This document shows positions 1,479 through 45,496 of a stretch of DNA of 64,000 nt, in pieces (position 1 is the stretch's first letter; every line of letters begins with the position of its first letter). The stretch spans positions 36,576 through 100,575 of the forward strand of contig JBARRO010000005.1 in the NCBI GenBank assembly GCA_049644265.1, given 5' to 3'. The notes beneath the pieces were generated by a model. That model was given only the letters and a program-made list of their open reading frames with translations, did no database searches and was not told the origin of the DNA. Position numbers and translations under genes: made by a program. The stretch comes from Bacteroidota bacterium (GTDB lineage: Bacteria > Bacteroidota > Ignavibacteria > UBA10030).

Positions 1479-1705
1479 TTGGACCTTCAATATTGATTCG
1501 GCGTATAGTACTAAACTCAGTGCGCAAAAACAATCACCACGCTTTATCTCTCTCGGCGTTCTCCGCCCGCCAGAGCAAGAACAGTGAGATTTTTCTTGCT
1601 TCTTAACGCCCGAAGCTTAAATTCACAGACAAGCACTCCCCTTCTATCCCTCTCCCCTGCTCCCCTGCTTCATTCCAAATCCCCCTCTGTCTTATCAGTT
1701 TGCAT

Positions 1706-2005
1706 ATGGTCGACAGAGCAACAAAATACATTGACGAACATTACGACGAAATCCAGACAGTCCAGGACGTCGCGGCGGCATTGAAGTGTCCCTACCATTC
1801 CTTGCGAAAGGCGTTTGCGCAGGAGATCGGCATGCCGATGCAGAATTATTTGCACCGGGTGCGAGTGCGGGCGGCAAAAGTTCTCATGAAGAAAAGCACC
1901 CTGAAACTCTACGCCATTGCGCGTCAGGTGGGATATTCGAGCGATAATTCCCTCCGCCGGCACTGGAAGAAATTTTACGGGCGGTGCCCGGGCAGGCGCT
2001 CATGA
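1706..2005 (+). CDS. Stand-alone AraC-family HTH domain protein, about 99 aa, with no sensor domain
   Basis: The translation matches the C-terminal HTH_AraC module of AraC/XylS regulators (...YHSLRKAFAQEIGMPMQNYLHRVRVRAAKVLM...IARQVGYSSDNSLRRHWKKFYG). The first ATG is at 1706; the ORF track begins at TTG 1700. Confidence 0.55.
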   Translation: MVDRATKYIDEHYDEIQTVQDVAAALKCPYHSLRKAFAQEIGMPMQNYLHRVRVRAAKVLMKKSTLKLYAIARQVGYSSDNSLRRHWKKFYGRCPGRRS

Positions 2006-2128: not shown

Positions 2129-2653
2129 TTGCAAAAGAATTTGTTAGCTGGCGTCTTACTACTGGGACTTGTTGTCCTTCCGATATCCGCCGTCTGGATC
2201 CTCCACGGCGAATTCACCAATCGATCCCCCGCACCCGGAACAAGAATCCCGTCCCTCATTCTGTCTACCCGGGATGGAAGTACATTTGCGCTCGGAGATT
2301 TCATCGGAAAGCGTGGACTGATCTTCTTCTTTACGGTAGAATGCTCCCATTGTCGAAAGGAATTCTCAAATCTGACGTCTCTCTACCCGCAGTACGCCAA
2401 AGACCTTCGCTTTTTCTTTGTTTCCCTTAGCGAGGTTGCTGATACCCGGGTTTTTCTCGGAATCAACGAGTCGACGAGGCCGGTGTTCTACTATAATAGT
2501 AGGAATGCGGGAAACGCTATTGATTTGAGCCTTGTCCCCACATTGTATTTGGTTGATGAGGGATTGATTCTTAGGAGCAAATATGTCGGCGAACGATCAC
2601 TGGAAGGGGATAAGCAAATCATTGAGGAGTTCATTCATGACTCCGCACGTTAA
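2129..2653 (+). CDS. Membrane-anchored thioredoxin-fold thiol:disulfide oxidoreductase, TlpA/ResA-like
   Basis: CSHC active-site motif in a redoxin context (FFFTVECSHCRKEF). N-terminal hydrophobic anchor/signal (QKNLLAGVLLLGLVVLPISAVW). Start proposed at TTG 2129, which lies 6 nt after a strong AGGAGGGG Shine-Dalgarno; the track start 2108 is also TTG. Confidence 0.7.
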   Translation: MQKNLLAGVLLLGLVVLPISAVWILHGEFTNRSPAPGTRIPSLILSTRDGSTFALGDFIGKRGLIFFFTVECSHCRKEFSNLTSLYPQYAKDLRFFFVSLSEVADTRVFLGINESTRPVFYYNSRNAGNAIDLSLVPTLYLVDEGLILRSKYVGERSLEGDKQIIEEFIHDSAR

Positions 2654-3185
2654 AGGAAATCTTCCTTCGAAGCCACCGGGAAAAGCCCTTGCACTGATTT
2701 TCGTGGTGGCAGGCTCGGCAGCTCTACTCGCAGCAGCCATTTCGGTAAGGATTGCCACCAAGGAGAACCGAAAAGATTTTATCCTGCAAGAGAGGGCAAA
2801 CACCTGCGGAGTAGCTGCAATGAAGATGGTGCTCGACGCATATGGAATCCATCGGACCATGGCAGACATTGAGAGTGAATTGCGGCCGTCACAAAAAGGT
2901 CTGAGCATGCTTGCCTTAAAGCGTTTCGCGCAGCAAACCGGCCTGTTTGTTCAAGGATGGCGGTTGTCCGCGGAGGAACTGAGCACTATCCCAAAGCCGG
3001 CCGTGCTATTCGTCCAAGGCTCGCATTACTGTATCCTCGATAGCGTCGACCGATCGCAGTATTTCTTCCGGGATCCGGCGTTCGGTGCCATACAAATGAC
3101 TGAGGAAGATCTCCAGAAAGTTTGGAACGGGGAAACTCTCGTTTTCTCAAACACGGTTCAGAACAAATTCGGAGAGGGTTTCTGA
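2637..3185 (+). CDS. Stand-alone peptidase C39-like (bacteriocin-processing papain-fold) domain protein with an N-terminal TM anchor
   Basis: C39 catalytic signature Q-x4-C (QERANTCGVAAMKMVL), a downstream His (GSHYCILD) and a DP motif. N-terminal TM segment ALALIFVVAGSAALLAAAISV. The ATG at 2637 overlaps the upstream stop by 17 nt (ATGACTCCGCACGTTAA), which suggests translational coupling. There is no fused ABC transporter domain. Confidence 0.7.
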   Translation: MTPHVKGNLPSKPPGKALALIFVVAGSAALLAAAISVRIATKENRKDFILQERANTCGVAAMKMVLDAYGIHRTMADIESELRPSQKGLSMLALKRFAQQTGLFVQGWRLSAEELSTIPKPAVLFVQGSHYCILDSVDRSQYFFRDPAFGAIQMTEEDLQKVWNGETLVFSNTVQNKFGEGF

Positions 3186-3235
3186 TGGCCCGCTGAAGAA
3201 TTTGCCCACGGAAACACAGAAGAAGCGGAAGGAGT

Positions 3236-3296
3236 CCACACGCGTCTTTCTTTTCCGTGTGTTTCGCGTGTTTCGTGGTCTCTTGTTTTTGGCGCG
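3236..3296. repeat. Intergenic heptamer-armed repeat element, family copy A
   Basis: ccgtgtgtttcgcgtgtttcgtgg tandem YTTYGTG units, with a complementary cacacgcg segment upstream. Confidence 0.45.
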
Positions 3297-3498
3297 ACAG
3301 TAAGGTCAGAAATATGCTGCGCAACCTGAACTTTTGTGGATCATCACCAAACCTTGCTCGCTGGTCTGTCAATTGACGATGGAAGCCCTGTGTGTGGTCG
3401 GCCCCCACATGCGGAGTGGAAATCCCGATGGGCAGAGGGCTGCAGCGGGCAAGAACATAACTCATCATCATTAACATATAATGGAAAAGGGGGAAGCC

Positions 3499-3783
3499 AT
3501 GAAAAACACAAAGAATCGAATTTGGGTTCTCTGTATTCTCTCCGCTATTCTTGTGAGCGGAGTGAATTTTGCTGCCGCGAAACCGGCCAATGTAGATCTT
3601 GGTCAGAATCGGGTCACGACGGCGATCATGCAGCAAGTCGACCACGGAGCCTTGCTCGGTGATGGAGAGCTCAACGCTGTCGTCGGAGGTGCGACGGGAT
3701 GCGCCAGGTTCTACGGCTGCTATTATTGCTGTCTGGATTTGTGGATCATCGAGATTTGCGTCACGGTTTGTTTTCCGTGGTAA
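3499..3783 (+). CDS. Small Cys-rich secreted peptide precursor with a double-glycine leader motif
   Basis: 95-aa ORF with a strong Shine-Dalgarno (AAGGGGGA) before ATG 3499. The N-terminal segment IWVLCILSAILVSGVNFAAA is signal-peptide-like. The stretch LLGDGELNAVVGG fits the LSxxELxxIxGG leader consensus at positions -12, -8, -7, -4, -2 and -1. The core ATGCARFYGCYYCCLDLWIIEICVTVCFPW is 30 aa with 6 Cys. An alternative ATG at 3628 would give a classical 21-aa leader and a 51-aa precursor. Confidence 0.55.
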   Translation: MKNTKNRIWVLCILSAILVSGVNFAAAKPANVDLGQNRVTTAIMQQVDHGALLGDGELNAVVGGATGCARFYGCYYCCLDLWIIEICVTVCFPW

Positions 3784-3877
3784 ACTGAAGCGAGGAAGCT
3801 CTTCTCGGAGGTTCGGGAAGAGCTTTCTTCTCCTTTTAATCCCACACTATCGAAGAACTTTTTTTTGGAGTATATCC

Positions 3878-4471
3878 ATGGTTCGAGACGCAAGTCGCTT
3901 GAGTGTGGTCCTGGCGCATGTTCTTTTGTTCACAACAAAAACCGCCGGACAAATCCCTTCTGGGGGAAGCGACTTTGGATTCCTTGATCAGGTACACTGG
4001 GGGATGTCGCTCGAGGCGGCTCGGGACTCACTGAACTCGTTTCATCCTTCCCTCGCTCAAAGGCCGATGCCGAATCTTCCGCCTGACGATCCTGATAATC
4101 GCAGCCGTGCTGCCCGCCTGGGACTGCAGGAGACTTCTGACACTGTGTTGGTAGTTCCATTCGATCTCCTCGGTGAAAAAGCAAGGGCAACGTTGTTTTT
4201 CAGCATTGCCGGCAAGAGACTCTGTTCAGCATCGATTGCCGTGCAGGAAGCAACGGATGAATTATTCAGAAAGGTGCTGAAAACCCTCGAACTCCGTCAC
4301 GGACCCCCGTCGGACTATCAGAAGAAACAAGAAACAAAGCTGTTCTTTACATTCGATTTCGAGTTACGGTCATGGAAGACCCAGTCTCAACTCATCGCCT
4401 TGGTGGATGTTCTCCTTAACGCATCCGTCCAAACATTCACGATTGATTACACCAAACTCTTAGAAGAGTGA
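3878..4471 (+). CDS. Hypothetical protein with an N-terminal hydrophobic or signal segment
   Basis: 198-aa ORF from ATG 3878, with GGAG upstream. The track's longer form, 3599, starts at TTG and overlaps the peptide gene. I recognise no family. Confidence 0.5.
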   Translation: MVRDASRLSVVLAHVLLFTTKTAGQIPSGGSDFGFLDQVHWGMSLEAARDSLNSFHPSLAQRPMPNLPPDDPDNRSRAARLGLQETSDTVLVVPFDLLGEKARATLFFSIAGKRLCSASIAVQEATDELFRKVLKTLELRHGPPSDYQKKQETKLFFTFDFELRSWKTQSQLIALVDVLLNASVQTFTIDYTKLLEE

Positions 4472-4540
4472 CTTAGAATCACTCCGCTCAAAGAAGATCT
4501 TTTTCCTGCTGGTCCATGTAATGAGGAAGGGGGATATGTC

Positions 4541-5191
4541 ATGCATGAGATGAGGGGCATCATAACGGCACCCTCCGAAACATTTTCCTTGATTGCCGCT
4601 GATCCGCGATGGAGATTGGCTTCAGTTGTGGTGACGTGTGGTTTAACGGCCCTTGCCTGGATAAAGACGTGCTTCGACAAAGGCTCCCTGTCCTTCGATT
4701 TGATTCTTTGGTGTGTTCTTTTTCTTATCTTATTCACTGTCCTGATACTTGTGACGCTGATTCTCGCTGCGTTTGTTTTTCTCAGTATTCACGCCTTTGT
4801 CCGATCGAACGAGCCGTCGTTTAAAACCATGTTTTCCGTCGTTGTTCACACTGGCATTGTGTTTCTGCTTGGAGAAGTTGCCAACTTAGTGCTCGTCCGT
4901 CTGAACATCCTTGATCCGTCATCGTTTCCTGTCCCCAATCGCTTCCCGATGGGGCTCGACGTCTTTGCAATAGGAACTCACCTCCCTTCCGCGGCGGCAG
5001 TGATCCTCTACAGTTTCAATGTGTTCACACTTTGGTACTTTTCCATCCTGGGACTCGGAGTTTCGGTGGTCACCGGTCTCGGCAAAACAACCTGCCTTGC
5101 GATCGCATCCTCCGCGTGGCTTCTCGGCGTGGTCTTTATCATCTCGTTAGTAGTCGCACTCGGAGGAACGTCGCTCGGGATTAAATTCTGA
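4541..5191 (+). CDS. Hypothetical polytopic membrane protein, Yip1/DUF1282-like topology
   Basis: ATG 4541 is preceded by AGGAAGGGGGA. The protein is 216 aa with about 5 hydrophobic helices. The Yip1 family assignment is tentative. Confidence 0.5.
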   Translation: MHEMRGIITAPSETFSLIAADPRWRLASVVVTCGLTALAWIKTCFDKGSLSFDLILWCVLFLILFTVLILVTLILAAFVFLSIHAFVRSNEPSFKTMFSVVVHTGIVFLLGEVANLVLVRLNILDPSSFPVPNRFPMGLDVFAIGTHLPSAAAVILYSFNVFTLWYFSILGLGVSVVTGLGKTTCLAIASSAWLLGVVFIISLVVALGGTSLGIKF

Positions 5192-5417: not shown

Positions 5418-7910
5418 ATGAAGAAACGGAACAAATCCGCCTCGAAAGTCTCTGCTGGCAACTCGAATCCCGGAGTCGCTCTCGCATCCGCGTCTCCTCC
5501 CCGACCGCTTCCCGTCGAGAAACTGCGATGGCAGTGCGACCCGAACTCTCTGGGCGTGAAATCAACTGCCGACATCAAGCCGAGCCGTGAAATCATCGGG
5601 CAGGACCGGGCTCTCCGGGCCTTAAAGGTCGGCCTCGAAATGGCTCATTACGGCTACAACATCTTCGTCACCGGCCTGTCCGGAACCGGTCGCACCACCA
5701 CGATCAAGCGACTCCTCCAGGACTTTGAAAAGAAGCACGTCGACCTGAAAGACCACTGCTATGTCTATAATTTCAAGAACCCCGATATGCCGATGGCAAT
5801 TTCCCTTCCGGCGGGACAGGGAAAGGGCTTGAAGGAAGACATGGAGAATTTCATCAACGAACTCCTGCGGGATATTCCCTCGGTTTATGAAAGCCAGCGA
5901 TACCAACAGGAAAGAAAAACCATGGTCCAGCTGTTTCAGGACCGCCAGAAGAGCGTCCTTCAGGATTTTGAAAAGAGGGTGAAGTCGCAGGGGTTCGACC
6001 TGGTCCAGGTTCAGGTCGGCAACGCCATGCGCCCCGACATCGTACCGGTATTCAACGGAGCTCCGTCTACGATGGATCAGCTCGAGGCCTCCGCGCAAAA
6101 AGGCGAAATTCCGAAGGATCAACTCGAAGCAGCCAAAGAACGTCTGGGCGAGCTGGAAAAGCAAATGTCCACGGTGTTCCGGGAACTGCGGAACATCGAG
6201 AAGAAAGTACAGCGCTCCCTGGAGGAGCTCGAAGAAAAGCTCGTGATGCCGATCGTCGACGCCGCCGTGAAGATCCTGAAAACGACGTACGACAGCCCCA
6301 AAGTACACGCCTACCTCGACGAAATCCGAACGGACGTTCGCGAAAACCTCGAGCGATTCCGGCGTCAATTGGCTCCCCCTTCAACACAGGAGGACGGCGA
6401 AGAAAACGCGGAAGACCAGTTCACGGAATTCCGGGTAAACGTCCTGGTTGACAATTCCGAAACACAACATGTTCCGATTGTGATCGAGACAAACCCGAAA
6501 TACAAGAACGTGTTCGGCACGGTGGACCGTGAACTGGAAAAAGGCGGTGTCTGGCGAACGGATTTCACCCACATCAAGGCCGGGTCACTTCTTCATGCCG
6601 ACGGCGGTTACCTGGTCCTCAACGCTCTCGATACGCTCATCGAACCCGGTGTATGGCAGGATTTGAAGCGAACGTTACGAACTGGAATGGTCGATATTCA
6701 GACCTACGAACCGATGTTCGGGTTTGCACCGTCGGGGATGAAACCGGAACCCATCACCCTGCACCTAAAAGTGATCATGATCGGGGAGACGGATCTCTAC
6801 TTTCTTCTCTACAGCAGGGACGACGATTTCAAGAAGATCTTCAAGATCAGGGCCGACTTCGACGTCGAAATGGTGAAAAACTCCGAAACGGTTTCCAAGT
6901 ACCTGAGCTTTATCAAGATGATTTGCGACGACGAACACCTCATGCCCTTCGCGGCCTCGGCGCTTGCACAAATCGTCGAGTTTGGGGTTCGGCTTGCCGG
7001 CAGGCAGGAAAAGCTTTCTACGCGATTCAACGTCATTGCCGATGTCGCCCGTGAGGCCAATTACTGGGCATCGAAAGCTCAGGCGAAGTCCGTATCCGCC
7101 GAACACGTGGAAAAGGCGATCAAGGAGCGGGAGTACCGGGTGAAATTGGTCGAGGACAAGCTTCAGGAACTGATCGAGGATGGGACCATCATGATCGATA
7201 CCGACGGCGCTGTCGTCGGTCAGGTCAACGGTCTGTCGGTCTATGACGTCGGCGAACATGCATTCGGAAAACCGTCGCGGATCACCGCAAAGACTTCACT
7301 CGGCCGCGCCGGCGTCATCAACATCGAGCGCGATGCGGAACTCAGCGGTCCAACGCACAACAAGGGCGTCGCAATTCTCAGCGGCTTTCTGCGCAGCAGG
7401 TTCGCACAGAACAAACCGCTTATCATGGACGCCAGTATCACGTTTGAACAGTCGTATGGCGGCGTCGACGGCGATAGTGCTTCGTCCACCGAGATCTATG
7501 CGATCCTCTCCAGTCTTGCCGAAATACCGCTCCGGCAGGACATCGCGATAACCGGGTCGGTTAACCAGAAAGGGGAAGTTCAACCGATCGGCGGGGTGAA
7601 CCTGAAGATCGAAGGATTCTTCGATGTCTGCAAAGCGCGCGGATTCACGGGCAGGCAGGGAGTCATCATCCCGCACCAGAACATCAAAGATCTGATGCTC
7701 CGGGAAGAAGTCTACGCGGTGGTCAAACAAAAGAAATTCAATATCTATGCGGTAAAGACCGTCGACGAAGGAATTGAGATTCTCACAGGAACAAAAGCGG
7801 GGAAACAACGATCCAACGGATCGTTTGAGCCGGGTACGGTGAACTTCCTGGCTGACCGAAAACTGTTAAAGTATGCGGAAGAGTGGAAACGCTTCGAAGC
7901 GAGGACTTGA
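5418..7910 (+). CDS. Lon-like ATP-dependent protease family protein, AAA+ plus S16 proteolytic domain, COG1067 type
   Basis: Walker A motif GLSGTGRTT. The C-terminal Lon protease domain carries SYGGVDGDSASSTE...QKGEVQPIGGV. Length is 830 aa. Confidence 0.85.
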   Translation: MKKRNKSASKVSAGNSNPGVALASASPPRPLPVEKLRWQCDPNSLGVKSTADIKPSREIIGQDRALRALKVGLEMAHYGYNIFVTGLSGTGRTTTIKRLLQDFEKKHVDLKDHCYVYNFKNPDMPMAISLPAGQGKGLKEDMENFINELLRDIPSVYESQRYQQERKTMVQLFQDRQKSVLQDFEKRVKSQGFDLVQVQVGNAMRPDIVPVFNGAPSTMDQLEASAQKGEIPKDQLEAAKERLGELEKQMSTVFRELRNIEKKVQRSLEELEEKLVMPIVDAAVKILKTTYDSPKVHAYLDEIRTDVRENLERFRRQLAPPSTQEDGEENAEDQFTEFRVNVLVDNSETQHVPIVIETNPKYKNVFGTVDRELEKGGVWRTDFTHIKAGSLLHADGGYLVLNALDTLIEPGVWQDLKRTLRTGMVDIQTYEPMFGFAPSGMKPEPITLHLKVIMIGETDLYFLLYSRDDDFKKIFKIRADFDVEMVKNSETVSKYLSFIKMICDDEHLMPFAASALAQIVEFGVRLAGRQEKLSTRFNVIADVAREANYWASKAQAKSVSAEHVEKAIKEREYRVKLVEDKLQELIEDGTIMIDTDGAVVGQVNGLSVYDVGEHAFGKPSRITAKTSLGRAGVINIERDAELSGPTHNKGVAILSGFLRSRFAQNKPLIMDASITFEQSYGGVDGDSASSTEIYAILSSLAEIPLRQDIAITGSVNQKGEVQPIGGVNLKIEGFFDVCKARGFTGRQGVIIPHQNIKDLMLREEVYAVVKQKKFNIYAVKTVDEGIEILTGTKAGKQRSNGSFEPGTVNFLADRKLLKYAEEWKRFEART

Positions 7911-12108: not shown

Positions 12109-12414
12109 TTACTTCTTCTCCATCTTCTCCTCAGCCTTCTTCTGCATCGCCTCGCCCTTCTTCTGCATCGCCTCGCCCTTCTTCTCCATTTTCTTTCCCT
12201 TCTTCTGCATCTTCTTTCCCTTCTTTTCCATCTTCTTTCCTTCCATCTTGTCGGCCTTCTTCTCCATCTTCTCGCCAGCCTTCTCCATCTTCTCACCCTT
12301 CATTTCCTTCTTCTCACCCTTCTTCTCCACCTTTTCCTGCTTCTCCTGGGCAAAGCCTGTCTGCGCCGCGAGAACTGCAACCGCGAGCGTCAAAACGATG
12401 AATAATTTCCGCAT
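12109..12414 (-). CDS. Secreted low-complexity Lys/Glu/Met-rich repeat protein with KMEKKGE-type tandem repeats
   Basis: ATG 12414 is preceded by GGAGGA. The signal peptide MRKLFIVLTLAVAVLAAQTGFAQE is followed by about 10 repeats of (K/E)KMEKKGE. The DNA carries the exact tandem 21-mer ttcttctgcatcgcctcgccc, twice. Confidence 0.55.
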   Translation of the reverse strand: MRKLFIVLTLAVAVLAAQTGFAQEKQEKVEKKGEKKEMKGEKMEKAGEKMEKKADKMEGKKMEKKGKKMQKKGKKMEKKGEAMQKKGEAMQKKAEEKMEKK

Positions 12415-44424: not shown

Positions 44425-44560
44425 ATGAGAGACCTTCCTTGAGTGTCCTTCGTGGTCCCCTGGAAAGACTCCCGGAATCTCACCGAGAATTACCGAGAAA
44501 GGTTCCGGGGGTCTCTCTTAGTGCCCTTGGTGTCCTTCGTGGTTCGTGGCTTCATCCGCG
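44425..44560. repeat. Intergenic heptamer repeat element, family copy G, inside the ABC operon
   Basis: cttgagtgtccttcgtggtcccc … cttagtgcccttggtgtccttcgtggttcgtggc. The central segment resembles copy F. Confidence 0.45.
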
Positions 44561-45496
44561 CGTGAGTTTGTGGAACACCTCTTCCAGACTCGTAACGCTT
44601 CTCGACATCTCCAACAACGTCCATCCTTCATTCACCGCTTTGCGGAAGAGCTCTTCCCGCACATCATTTCCTTTTTCCGTATGCACACGAAACTTGTGGA
44701 TGGCCCCTTCCTGCCCGCCATACTCAACGGATTGAATTTTTGCAATCGACTGAATTTTCGGGAAGATGTCCGTCATCGCATTCGTTACATTCGCCTTCAG
44801 CTCCAGCGCAACAACCTCGGCGCCACGGAAATCCTGCTGCAGCTGCTCCGGTGTACCGTCTGCGACGATCGTTCCTTCGTTAATGATGATAACGCGGTCG
44901 CAGGTTGCCTGGACCTCGGAGAGGATGTGCGTGGAGAGAATAACCGTCTTCGCGCGACCCAACTGACGGATAAGGTTTCGAATTTCGACGATTTGATTGG
45001 GATCGAGGCCGCTGGTCGGTTCATCCAGGATCAACACTTCCGGGTCGTGCACCATTGCCTGGGCAAGGCCCACCCTCTGGCGAAATCCTTTGGAGAGTTC
45101 GCCGATGTCTTTATGACGAACGTTCGTCAATCCACAGAGGTCGATCATTTCCTTCAGACGACTCTTGAGAACGGCGTTCTTCAGGCCATGCAGGCGCGCG
45201 GAATACTCCAGGTACTCCACGACGTTCATGTCGAGATACAGCGGGTTGAGCTCGGGAAGATAGCCGATCTTTCTTCGCACTTCGAGGGAGCGTTCCGCGG
45301 TCTTGAATCCGTCCACCTCTACCGTGCCCGACGAGGCGGGCAGATAACACGTGATGATTTTCATCGTGGTGGTCTTGCCGGCGCCGTTGGGACCGAGGAA
45401 TCCGAGAATTTCCCCCGTTTTCACGTCGAACGAAATGTTATCAACCGCTTTTTCCTGTCCGTAGTATTTCGTCAGATTCCGTACTGCAATTGCCAT
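44552..45496 (-). CDS. ABC transporter ATP-binding protein, GldA-like
   Basis: Walker A GPNGAGKTT, ABC signature LSKGFRQRV, and Walker B ILDEPTSGLD. Confidence 0.85.
   Translation of the reverse strand: MAIAVRNLTKYYGQEKAVDNISFDVKTGEILGFLGPNGAGKTTTMKIITCYLPASSGTVEVDGFKTAERSLEVRRKIGYLPELNPLYLDMNVVEYLEYSARLHGLKNAVLKSRLKEMIDLCGLTNVRHKDIGELSKGFRQRVGLAQAMVHDPEVLILDEPTSGLDPNQIVEIRNLIRQLGRAKTVILSTHILSEVQATCDRVIIINEGTIVADGTPEQLQQDFRGAEVVALELKANVTNAMTDIFPKIQSIAKIQSVEYGGQEGAIHKFRVHTEKGNDVREELFRKAVNEGWTLLEMSRSVTSLEEVFHKLTRG

Follow-up and report, generated by a model that had tools for sequence, protein, structure and literature searches.

A 64,000-nt stretch of contig JBARRO010000005.1 (referred to here as the window), from a metagenome-assembled genome (MAG) of the Ignavibacteria lineage UBA10030, carries five genes on the same strand between positions 2129 and 5191. 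These encode a thioredoxin-fold protein, a stand-alone C39 double-glycine (GG) peptidase, a small precursor peptide, a secreted protein and a Yip1-domain membrane protein, and all five are present at the coordinates which an initial annotation, made from the sequence alone, had given for its linked, co-directional genes. We consider it probable, at about two chances in three, that this cassette makes a small, hydrophobic peptide stapled by disulfides, which would be matured outside the cytoplasm and would most likely be a toxin of the bacteriocin kind. The comparison with related loci supports a reading in which GG peptides are matured in the periplasm instead of the cytoplasm, and the cassette also brings a new candidate RNA family.

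The proposed pathway has six steps. First, a structured 5' leader RNA and a 3' hairpin would probably set the level of the precursor mRNA apart from that of the enzyme genes. Secondly, the 94-aa precursor would be exported by Sec and probably cut by signal peptidase I near the junction of AAA and K. Third, the membrane-anchored, periplasm-facing C39 peptidase would recognize the GG leader on the propeptide and cut after Gly63-Gly64. Fourth, the translationally coupled TlpA-fold oxidoreductase, which has a DsbA-like CxHC motif and would be anchored beside the peptidase, would form the disulfides, three in the window core and two nested staples in most relatives. Fifth, the Yip1 protein and the small secreted protein might perhaps protect the producer or hand the peptide on. 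Lastly, the peptide would have to cross the outer membrane, for which the window shows no recognisable route; in some relatives the cassette includes a gene for a DUF5686 outer-membrane protein or for a transporter of the ABC-2 type.

Cassette, peptidase and precursor peptides

The cassette is a real, conserved gene set of uncultivated Ignavibacteria-like bacteria. A word-index protein search found only nine relatives of the C39 protein, and their contigs encode a Redoxin protein, a C39 peptidase, a small open reading frame (ORF), in some cases an unknown protein, and a Yip1 protein. A scan with the C39 alignment of one genome per GTDB species found 29 loci; about 24 are from Ignavibacteria, Ignavibacteriales or 'Bacteroidota' MAGs, one is from Poribacteria and one from Planctomycetota, and five distant matches were set apart as other systems. 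The core order, found in about 25 loci, is a TlpA-fold thioredoxin, C39, the precursor, a secreted protein of about 170-200 aa and Yip1. In about 20 loci C39 is immediately preceded by the thioredoxin gene, and the two usually overlap by 4 nt; the Yip1 gene is downstream in most loci whose contig extends far enough. The same gene order is kept among loci whose C39 proteins are only 36-84% identical, which, together with the conserved precursor ORF, indicates more than chance. In addition, one locus contains two cassettes and two MAGs have two loci each. The initial annotation had advised a check of neighbourhood conservation, and the outcome is that the same order recurs in related loci with no ordinary C39 exporter of the ATP-binding cassette (ABC) type beside them. 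Among 1.84 billion representatives, an exhaustive profile search gave 12,481 C39 matches with E<=1e-3, of which 111 had E<=1e-30. The best 150 of the 12,481 were all short (110-345 aa) and none was of transporter length.

Several matches were treated as other C39 systems, namely L004 (protein P0009), L029-L033 and the archaeal matches. The L004 locus (GCA_044345325.1, 492-2346) contains a different stand-alone C39 system, in which the gene for a 235-aa C39 protein, with what looks like a cleavable signal peptide, lies between genes for two secreted proteins rich in Ser, Thr and Asn (138 and 194 aa). This system looks more like the FapD/FilB-type fibre systems.

The peptidase of the window matches Pfam Peptidase_C39 (PF03412) with 91.9 bits against a cut-off of 22 (E=3.8e-26) over profile positions 2-131 of 133. 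Its start at 2637 agrees with the 182-aa protein annotated in the source MAG (P0001), and an alternative ATG at 2583 would give a protein of 200 aa. The gene overlaps the thioredoxin gene by 17 nt, and the overlap in relatives is 17 or 4 nt. Gln51, Cys57, His130 and Asp146 are invariant across eight C39 homologues. The Cys, His and Asp motifs align with those of LahT150, and Gln51 is the oxyanion-hole residue, so that an alignment contains the catalytic Cys and His on which the initial annotation had made its assignment depend, with the Asp and the oxyanion Gln in addition. LahT150 (6mpz) is also the closest PDB relative by sequence and fold, followed by ComA PEP and PCAT1. The AlphaFold2 model compared with 6mpz in Foldseek gave E=6.6e-11 and a target-normalised TM value of 0.82; its predicted local distance difference test score (pLDDT) is above 90 over residues 55-172, and it has an N-terminal helix at residues 16-43. 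The description of this gene as a stand-alone C39 peptidase with an N-terminal transmembrane anchor, overlapping the thioredoxin gene, thus agrees with the Pfam match, the helix and the overlap. The protein is predicted to be active as a GG peptidase and would cleave its proposed substrate after Gly-Gly. With the NCBIfam models TIGR01193 and TIGR03796 for peptidase-containing ABC transporters (PCATs), the peptidase part alone aligned; the scores were 31 and 69 bits, where the cut-offs are 524 and 853. The PCAT architecture of C39, transmembrane and ATP-binding domains (about 700 aa) is absent from this protein of 182 aa.

An ORF of 75-138 aa is present in the cassette downstream of C39 in almost every locus and directly after it in most. 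Orthologues in L001 and L002 are 59-74% identical to the window precursor, and related precursors are found in L003, L007, L013, L015, L024, L028 and L043. A word-index search with the peptide found only the window peptide and two close orthologues, and a back-translated scan of metagenome contigs gave no confirmed match. For position counts, 25 precursors were aligned on the cleavage site. All 25 are tripartite, with a Sec-type signal, a GG leader and a hydrophobic core; thus a peptide of the same architecture is conserved in relatives, as the initial annotation required of a genuine peptide gene.

The leaders agree with the GG consensus (hydrophobic -12, -7 and -4, acidic -8, Gly at -2 and Gly, Ala or Ser at -1), which reads LLGDGELNAVVGG in the window. 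Position -12 is L, M or I in 24 precursors, -8 is E or Q in 17, -7 is M, L or I in 23, and -4 and -3 are mostly V, I or A. Position -2 is G in all 25, and -1 is G, A or S in 20, 4 and 1, respectively. A Sec-type signal of 20-30 aa is found ahead of the GG leader in 23 of the 25, as judged by a simple test that asked for positive charge in the n-region, at least 12 uncharged residues in a row and a site like AxA. These precursors therefore do not follow the usual rule for GG leaders, in which the leader is the N-terminus of the precursor and there is no Sec signal. Pfam and NCBIfam searches with the window peptide and ten diverse precursors gave nothing above threshold, and the window peptide had no match. 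Below threshold, relatives matched the curated leader models ComC (E=0.0037) and TIGR04149 (E=0.016), and in one relative an internal segment can be aligned with the ComC leader model starting at its first residue.

The window precursor begins with MKNTKNR, followed by a hydrophobic run and AAA before K, and its leader ends in GELNAVVGG ahead of ATGCARFYGCYYCCLDLWIIEICVTVCFPW. Its three parts are the Sec-type signal MKNTKNRIWVLCILSAILVSGVNFAAA (about aa 1-27, nt 3499-3579), the spacer and GG leader KPANVDLGQNRVTTAIMQQVDHGALLGDGELNAVVGG (aa 28-64, nt 3580-3690) and the core ATGCARFYGCYYCCLDLWIIEICVTVCFPW (aa 65-94, nt 3691-3780), which has 30 aa and six Cys. The architecture proposed earlier for a Cys-rich GG-leader peptide with a Sec-like N-terminus was retained, and its length was corrected from 95 to 94 aa. 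In the signal region of the window, L001 and L002 genes, 14 of 23 differences fall at third codon positions and synonymous codon changes are about equal in number to non-synonymous ones. In contrast, the spacer between signal and leader has mainly non-synonymous changes. Because of this third-position and synonymous excess, unlike in the spacer, the signal-peptide region is read as translated, and its codons are under purifying selection.

Behind the conserved leader, the cores are hypervariable, 30-72 aa long and hydrophobic, with a grand average of hydropathy (GRAVY) of 0.3-1.6. The Cys count is even in all 25 cores (0, 2, 4 or 6). Their spacing is often symmetric, as in C-x6-C-x9..13-C-x6-C and C-x10-C-x9-C-x10-C. 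Two-Cys cores, with Cys near the ends, are found in L006, L016 and L026, and the window core has the pattern C-x5-C-x2-CC-x8-C-x3-C. The Planctomycetota locus L022 has no adjacent thioredoxin and a core without Cys. Residues at i/i+7 or i/i+11 share one face of a helix, and from the symmetric spacing we therefore infer that the cores may be helical hairpins stapled by nested disulfides.

Predicted topology and disulfide formation

The initial annotation had placed the peptidase and the thioredoxin on the periplasmic side and had given the peptide a Sec signal. Three lines of evidence support this, namely the charge bias of the anchors, natural fusions and the signals in 23 of 25 precursors. 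An N-terminal transmembrane-like segment is present in 110 of 125 full-length representatives of the C39 family, and exactly one in 106. The mean net charge of the anchor flanks is +2.13 on the N side and +0.73 on the C side, with the N-flank more positive in 73; the locus set points the same way. At least five natural fusions of thioredoxin to C39 were found (P0033, P0105, P0113, P0142 and P0155), and the representative search also gave P0139 and P0109. The five consist of one N-terminal transmembrane-like segment, a TlpA-like thioredoxin and C39, with no second membrane segment, and both domains should therefore be in the same compartment. Such fusions are Rosetta-stone evidence which points to joint action there. 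Anchored TlpA/ResA-type thioredoxins are extracytoplasmic. The anchor charge bias and the fusions, taken with substrates that carry Sec signals, therefore predict that the leader is removed and the disulfides are formed in the periplasm.

The window contains one C39 gene and a single ABC nucleotide-binding domain, which forms a protein of its own (44552-45496) at a distance of 40 kb. Neither the 64-kb window nor the flanks of about 24 related loci, covered to about 5 kb, contained a PCAT or C39-ABC exporter, so the absence of such an exporter claimed for this locus extends to the related neighbourhoods. Ordinary cytoplasmic processing, in which the N-termini are not export signals, C39 faces the cytoplasm and an ABC exporter is encoded elsewhere, is very unlikely to be the explanation. 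It does have precedent, since to our knowledge all characterised bacteriocin GG leaders are cut by cytoplasm-facing C39 domains; in addition, the topology here is predicted, and the C-flank is the more positive one in 24 of the 110 representatives. However, precursor N-termini that look like typical signal peptides in nearly all cases, and are under purifying selection, are hard to reconcile with it, as are fusions that put C39 on the side of a TlpA-type thioredoxin without a second transmembrane segment and a charge bias which overall favours N-in. The absence of a PCAT from the window and the related neighbourhoods also argues against it, and an oxidising compartment is where a CPHC protein would be expected to form disulfides.

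The thioredoxin gene has a TTG start behind AGGAGG. Its product matches AhpC-TSA (34.9 bits, cut-off 26) and Redoxin (29.4 bits, cut-off 26.6), has one N-terminal transmembrane-like segment after an N-flank of +4, and contains CSHC. The fold, anchor and motif of the membrane-anchored TlpA-like thioredoxin described earlier were thus all recovered. The ResA, TlpA, StoA and MauD equivalog models scored 18-36 bits against cut-offs of 170-230, so none of these assignments was reached. CxxC is present in 21 of 23 homologous thioredoxin ORFs, mostly as CPHC, with CSHC in the window. CPHC is the active-site motif of DsbA, and its presence in most loci is therefore the basis for an oxidase role. Under the preferred reading, in which the peptide is matured in the periplasm, we propose that the thioredoxin is a dedicated periplasmic disulfide oxidase.

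Leader RNA and accessory genes

About 150 nt before the precursor start codon are conserved at the nucleotide level above the neighbouring genes, and a profile of this stretch recovers the same element in distant loci. From a 17-copy alignment, RNAalifold gave a rod of five helices; compensatory changes are found in 21 of its 35 pairs. Alignment cells were paired in 92.7% of cases, compared with 35-46% when the partners were slid, and none of 500 shuffles reached the observed values. With covariance model R1, 23 related loci gave matches at E<1e-7, each cassette having a single copy, and six of these loci were outside the seed; L014 has a weaker copy, and the metagenome contig L043 also has one. 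The copies are always on the plus strand, about 30-60 nt upstream of the precursor start, and the strand could be fixed because there are many G-U pairs and minus-strand scores are low. The RNA is likewise beside the precursor gene in L008, in which the accessory gene precedes both. The leader RNA has no Rfam match at gathering thresholds, and at E<=10 there were two chance matches to small nucleolar RNAs on the opposite strand. The single-sequence fold of the window leader is not significantly more stable than shuffles (z = -0.9), and the case for an RNA is thus made by covariation and not by energy. On these results the element is a well-supported candidate for a new cis-regulatory RNA family specific to the cassette.

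Small ORFs which overlap the RNA (for example 3336-3662) were rejected as genes, since their apparent conservation tracks that of the nucleotides and the loops have indels of 1-2 nt. A degenerate DNA pattern for the RNA was too loose; of the first 80 metagenome loci it retrieved, the covariance model accepted L043 alone. Pairing is possible between a conserved GGCC in the P5 loop and GGCC in the 3' strand in 68 of 68 cells (columns 61-64 with 103-106 of alignment A7, about 3404-3407 with 3441-3444 in the window), and compensatory changes are found in L017 and L008. Since this pairing competes with the middle of helix 2, it suggests that the leader RNA forms a pseudoknot or a two-state conformational switch, with few independent events behind the suggestion. 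On the 3' side of the precursor gene, a G+C-rich hairpin of 10-17 bp is found in the same place in five of five loci folded, with differing sequences, and is a candidate terminator or attenuator or a candidate 3' stabiliser. From the leader RNA and this hairpin together, the precursor is predicted to be expressed as a separately tuned unit.

The fifth gene had been described as coding for an unknown polytopic membrane protein. This was superseded, as its product, with five transmembrane-like segments, matches Pfam Yip1 at 44.4 bits against a cut-off of 28.6 (E=2.1e-11). The NCBIfam model YknW_fam gave a weak 39.4 bits against a cut-off of 110, so this equivalog was not reached. Yip1 proteins are frequent in circular and leaderless bacteriocin clusters (PMC11580447, PMC10707071), and we propose that the Yip1 protein is an immunity or handling factor. 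The secreted protein had been called unknown; it has a signal-like N-terminus, and no match was found in Pfam, NCBIfam, PADLOC or PDB, including a profile search. In 16 cassettes a homologue of about 160-200 aa is encoded beside the precursor, on its 3' side in 15 and ahead of it in L008; these homologues align with the window protein with F108, P144 and W166 conserved. The AlphaFold model, from a shallow alignment of five sequences, had a pLDDT of 37 and was unusable.

Some cassettes differ in their accessory genes. A protein of about 800 aa with CarboxypepD_reg and DUF5686 domains, absent from the window, is encoded inside some of them; its N-terminus is like that of TonB-linked outer-membrane receptors, and it may be an outer-membrane passage for the peptide. 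Five loci (L016, L018, L023, L026 and L027; for example L018 6067-9596) have an ABC variant, in which a stand-alone ABC ATPase of 258-262 aa is preceded by a protein with 10-11 transmembrane segments or by two proteins with about five each. Yip1 is next in all five, followed by a MauE/DoxX protein in L018 and L026. Four related loci encode such a MauE/DoxX membrane protein, a possible redox partner for the thioredoxin. L021 (95-7631, Poribacteria) and L022 (40-6523, Planctomycetota) represent a divergent variant without thioredoxin, with genes for a transglutaminase-like protein, a GT2-TPR protein, C39, a peptide with signal and GG leader, and a protein of the Rce1/CPBP family, which is linked to bacteriocin self-immunity. 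After the Rce1/CPBP gene L021 has Yip1, and L022 ends within the CPBP gene.

The DUF5686 protein of some relatives is one of three points in favour of Fap/Fil-like fibre assembly, in which C39 would be a FapD/FilB-type protein and Gly/Ala-rich peptides would be amyloid or pilus subunits passing through the outer-membrane protein. The others are that FapD is periplasmic and acts on Sec-exported proteins and that the C39 protein weakly matches the NCBIfam models FapD (NF058616, 51.5 bits) and FilB (NF050078, 38.4 bits). This explanation is barely credible. Both scores are far under the equivalog cut-offs of 330 and 475, whereas PCAT-type GG peptidases match best in NCBIfam and PDB. The cores are short and hypervariable and have no amyloid repeats, they follow a canonical GG leader which Fap proteins lack, and no Fap or Fil partner genes (FapA/B/C/E/F) or usher/chaperone genes were found in the window cassette or the related loci.

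A different function for the same maturation is also to be considered. The peptide might stay in the periplasm or inner membrane of its producer as a signal, a metal- or redox-active peptide or a membrane subunit. That would agree with the lack of an outer-membrane exporter at the window locus, with cores hydrophobic enough (GRAVY up to 1.6) to partition into membranes, with the AraC-type regulator gene adjoining the cassette, and with the bufferins, which are Sec-exported Cys-rich peptides able to act as periplasmic metallophores. We regard such a non-weapon role as unlikely. Hypervariable cores, multiple cassettes and partners such as Yip1, CPBP and ABC-2 proteins form, by analogy, a toxin/immunity pattern and give the loci a bacteriocin-like context. 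Even Cys numbers, helical-staple spacing and a CPHC oxidoreductase suggest structural disulfides, not metal-binding thiols, and no MNIO/DUF2063 genes or sensor kinase are present in the window cassette or the related loci.

Several points count against a secreted, disulfide-stapled toxin. The family was seen only in MAGs and unbinned metagenome contigs. The topology is predicted from hydropathy and charge heuristics and from fusions, and a minority of the C39 anchors have the opposite charge bias, as noted above. TlpA-family proteins are classically reductants, and the oxidase role proposed here has the CPHC/CSHC motif and the substrate as its only basis. In addition, no MauE/DsbB-like reoxidising partner is present at the window locus, and Cys-containing cassettes in L010, L016 and L025 have no adjacent thioredoxin. 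No recognisable outer-membrane route is present at the window locus. The secreted accessory protein has no detectable relatives beyond the cassettes, and its model is unusable. Lastly, antimicrobial activity and an immunity function are both deduced from sequence.

Known systems and features of the window

The initial annotation could not match this arrangement to a described system. The combination was indeed not found in the literature, but a periplasmic stand-alone C39 peptidase is known in FapD. No paper was found on precursors with both a Sec signal and a GG leader, on anchored or thioredoxin-fused C39, or on the leader RNA; coverage was incomplete, and the lack of papers is therefore absence of evidence only. 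The proposal that Sec-exported GG precursors, a periplasmic anchored or fused C39, a DsbA-like oxidase and their own leader RNA, possibly a pseudoknot switch, together represent an undescribed peptide maturation class is evenly balanced.

One close likeness is to the PCATs, or ABC-transporter maturation and secretion (AMS) proteins, such as ComA, LahT and PCAT1, with the GG leaders of class II bacteriocins or of modified ribosomal peptides. They share the C39 fold and the Gln/Cys/His/Asp set, with the best matches to 6mpz, 5xe8 and 4ry2, and the same leader motif with hydrophobic -12, -7 and -4, E at -8 and GG at -2 and -1. However, the cassette has no ABC transporter; its peptidase is a signal-anchored protein of 180 aa which is sometimes fused to thioredoxin and is predicted to be periplasmic, and its precursors have a Sec signal ahead of the GG leader. 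FapD, from the Pseudomonas Fap functional amyloid system, is an active periplasmic stand-alone C39 peptidase with a Sec signal, and it acts on Sec-exported proteins in an operon with a dedicated outer-membrane protein (PMC5557850). Thus a periplasmic stand-alone C39 is not unprecedented as a single feature, and some cassette relatives also encode an outer-membrane protein. The substrate of FapD is unknown, and the Fap proteins have no canonical GG leader (PMC5557850). In contrast to that system, the FapD model was weakly matched, the cassette has no fap genes, and its substrates are short, hypervariable and Cys-containing, with a textbook GG leader and a coupled thioredoxin.

The bufferins are Sec-exported peptides made on ribosomes and modified after translation (RiPPs), among which Sec signals are called rare (PMC11626156). 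Like Sec-dependent bacteriocins, they share with the cassette Sec export by a cleavable signal peptide and Cys-containing periplasmic or secreted products. However, their precursors have no GG leader and no C39 step, and bufferins are modified in the cytoplasm by DUF2063 proteins and multinuclear non-heme iron oxidases (MNIO, DUF692), for which no genes were found in the window cassette or the related loci. The Bacillus subtilis SDP toxin (SdpABC) is also similar, as it is reportedly, from work of Perez Morales and colleagues in 2013, exported by Sec and then processed outside the cytoplasm to give a hydrophobic toxin that contains a disulfide. In the YknWXYZ protection system an ABC transporter has the Yip1 protein YknW as its partner. 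The weak YknW-family match and the pairing of Yip1 with an ABC ATPase in some cassette relatives recall this system. However, SdpA and SdpB are unrelated to C39 and thioredoxin, and the cassette has no HlyD-like or FtsX-type partner.

Glycocins typically have the nested C-x6-C...C-x6-C pattern of a helical hairpin. As in glycocin and bacteroidetocin clusters, a thioredoxin-fold gene is found beside a Cys-rich peptide gene; glycocin clusters have dedicated thioredoxin-family proteins alongside C39-ABC exporters (PMC12457901). The difference is that those peptides exit by a C39-ABC exporter and are glycosylated in the cytoplasm, whereas no glycosyltransferase was found in the Ignavibacteria-type cassettes. 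The MauE/DoxX partner in four related loci and a weak MauD match of the thioredoxin recall MauD/MauE, but Mau proteins mature an enzyme subunit.

GG leaders are usually regarded as directing a peptide to a peptidase in the cytoplasm that is fused to a dedicated ABC exporter, and periplasmic maturation would matter for several reasons. First, if true, it would mean that the module of GG leader and peptidase is portable to the periplasm and works there after Sec export. Secondly, the periplasmic C39 class (FapD-like) would gain its first clear substrate motif. Third, the route would probably have been missed by bacteriocin and RiPP mining tools keyed on C39-ABC exporters and N-terminal leaders. 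In addition, the combination of Sec signal, pro-sequence cleavable at GG and tethered disulfide oxidase could be a compact toolkit for disulfide-stapled peptides in Gram-negative hosts. Lastly, the leader RNA would be a candidate cis-regulatory RNA tied to production of a peptide toxin.

The features are collected in Table 1. The helix-turn-helix (HTH) protein encoded directly upstream of the cassette is, from position only, a possible cassette regulator; L001, L002, L012 and the ENA contig of P0004 have a homologue at the corresponding place. In the 64-kb window no tRNA was found, nor any Rfam family at gathering thresholds, and PADLOC gave no defence-system match for any of the five cassette proteins.

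Table 1. Positions of cassette features in the window and of corresponding elements in related loci
Feature	Sequence	Position	Strand	Basis
AraC/XylS-type HTH regulator, MarA-sized, 101 aa	Window	1700..2005	+	Pfam HTH_18, E=2.4e-15
Membrane-anchored TlpA/ResA-fold thioredoxin, CSHC	Window	2129..2653	+	Pfam AhpC-TSA, Redoxin
Stand-alone C39 GG peptidase, N-terminal signal-anchor, 182 aa	Window	2637..3185	+	Pfam Peptidase_C39
Structured leader RNA (candidate), about 110 nt	Window	3350..3457	+	Covariation, covariance model R1
Precursor peptide, 94 aa	Window	3499..3783	+	Conserved ORF, signal + GG leader + core
G+C-rich hairpin, 17 bp, then T-rich tract, directly 3' of precursor gene	Window	3792..3829	+	Terminator-like scan
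Secreted accessory protein, 197 aa, signal-like N-terminus	Window	3878..4471	+	Homologues in cassettes
Yip1-domain polytopic membrane protein	Window	4541..5191	+	Pfam Yip1, five transmembrane-like segments
Leader RNA copy	L001	1339-1446	+	
Leader RNA copy	L002	1372-1479	+	
Leader RNA copies	L005	549-659 and 5516-5626	+	
Leader RNA copy	L013	2994-3102	+	
Leader RNA copy	L024	3711-3820	+	
Leader RNA copy	L043	743-852	+	
CarboxypepD_reg + DUF5686 protein	L005	2464-4875		
CarboxypepD_reg + DUF5686 protein	L008	2092-4485		
CarboxypepD_reg + DUF5686 protein	L010	6855-9219		
CarboxypepD_reg + DUF5686 protein	L019	5870-8173		
CarboxypepD_reg + DUF5686 protein	L025	5939-6394		

A LonB/LonC-like protease (AAA_32, LonC_helical, Lon_C) is encoded at 5418-7910 on the plus strand, adjoining the cassette. 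It was set aside as a cassette member, as its position varies among loci and it is absent elsewhere; it is 3' of the cassette in the window and L001, and two genes upstream, before dnaX, in L015, L024 and L028. Its adjacency is probably synteny rather than function. Further along the window, a 101-aa secreted protein with KMEKKGE-like heptad repeats behind a signal peptide is encoded at 12109-12414 on the minus strand, and the tandem repeat at 12112-12333 (unit of 21 nt, or 42 nt) encodes these heptads.

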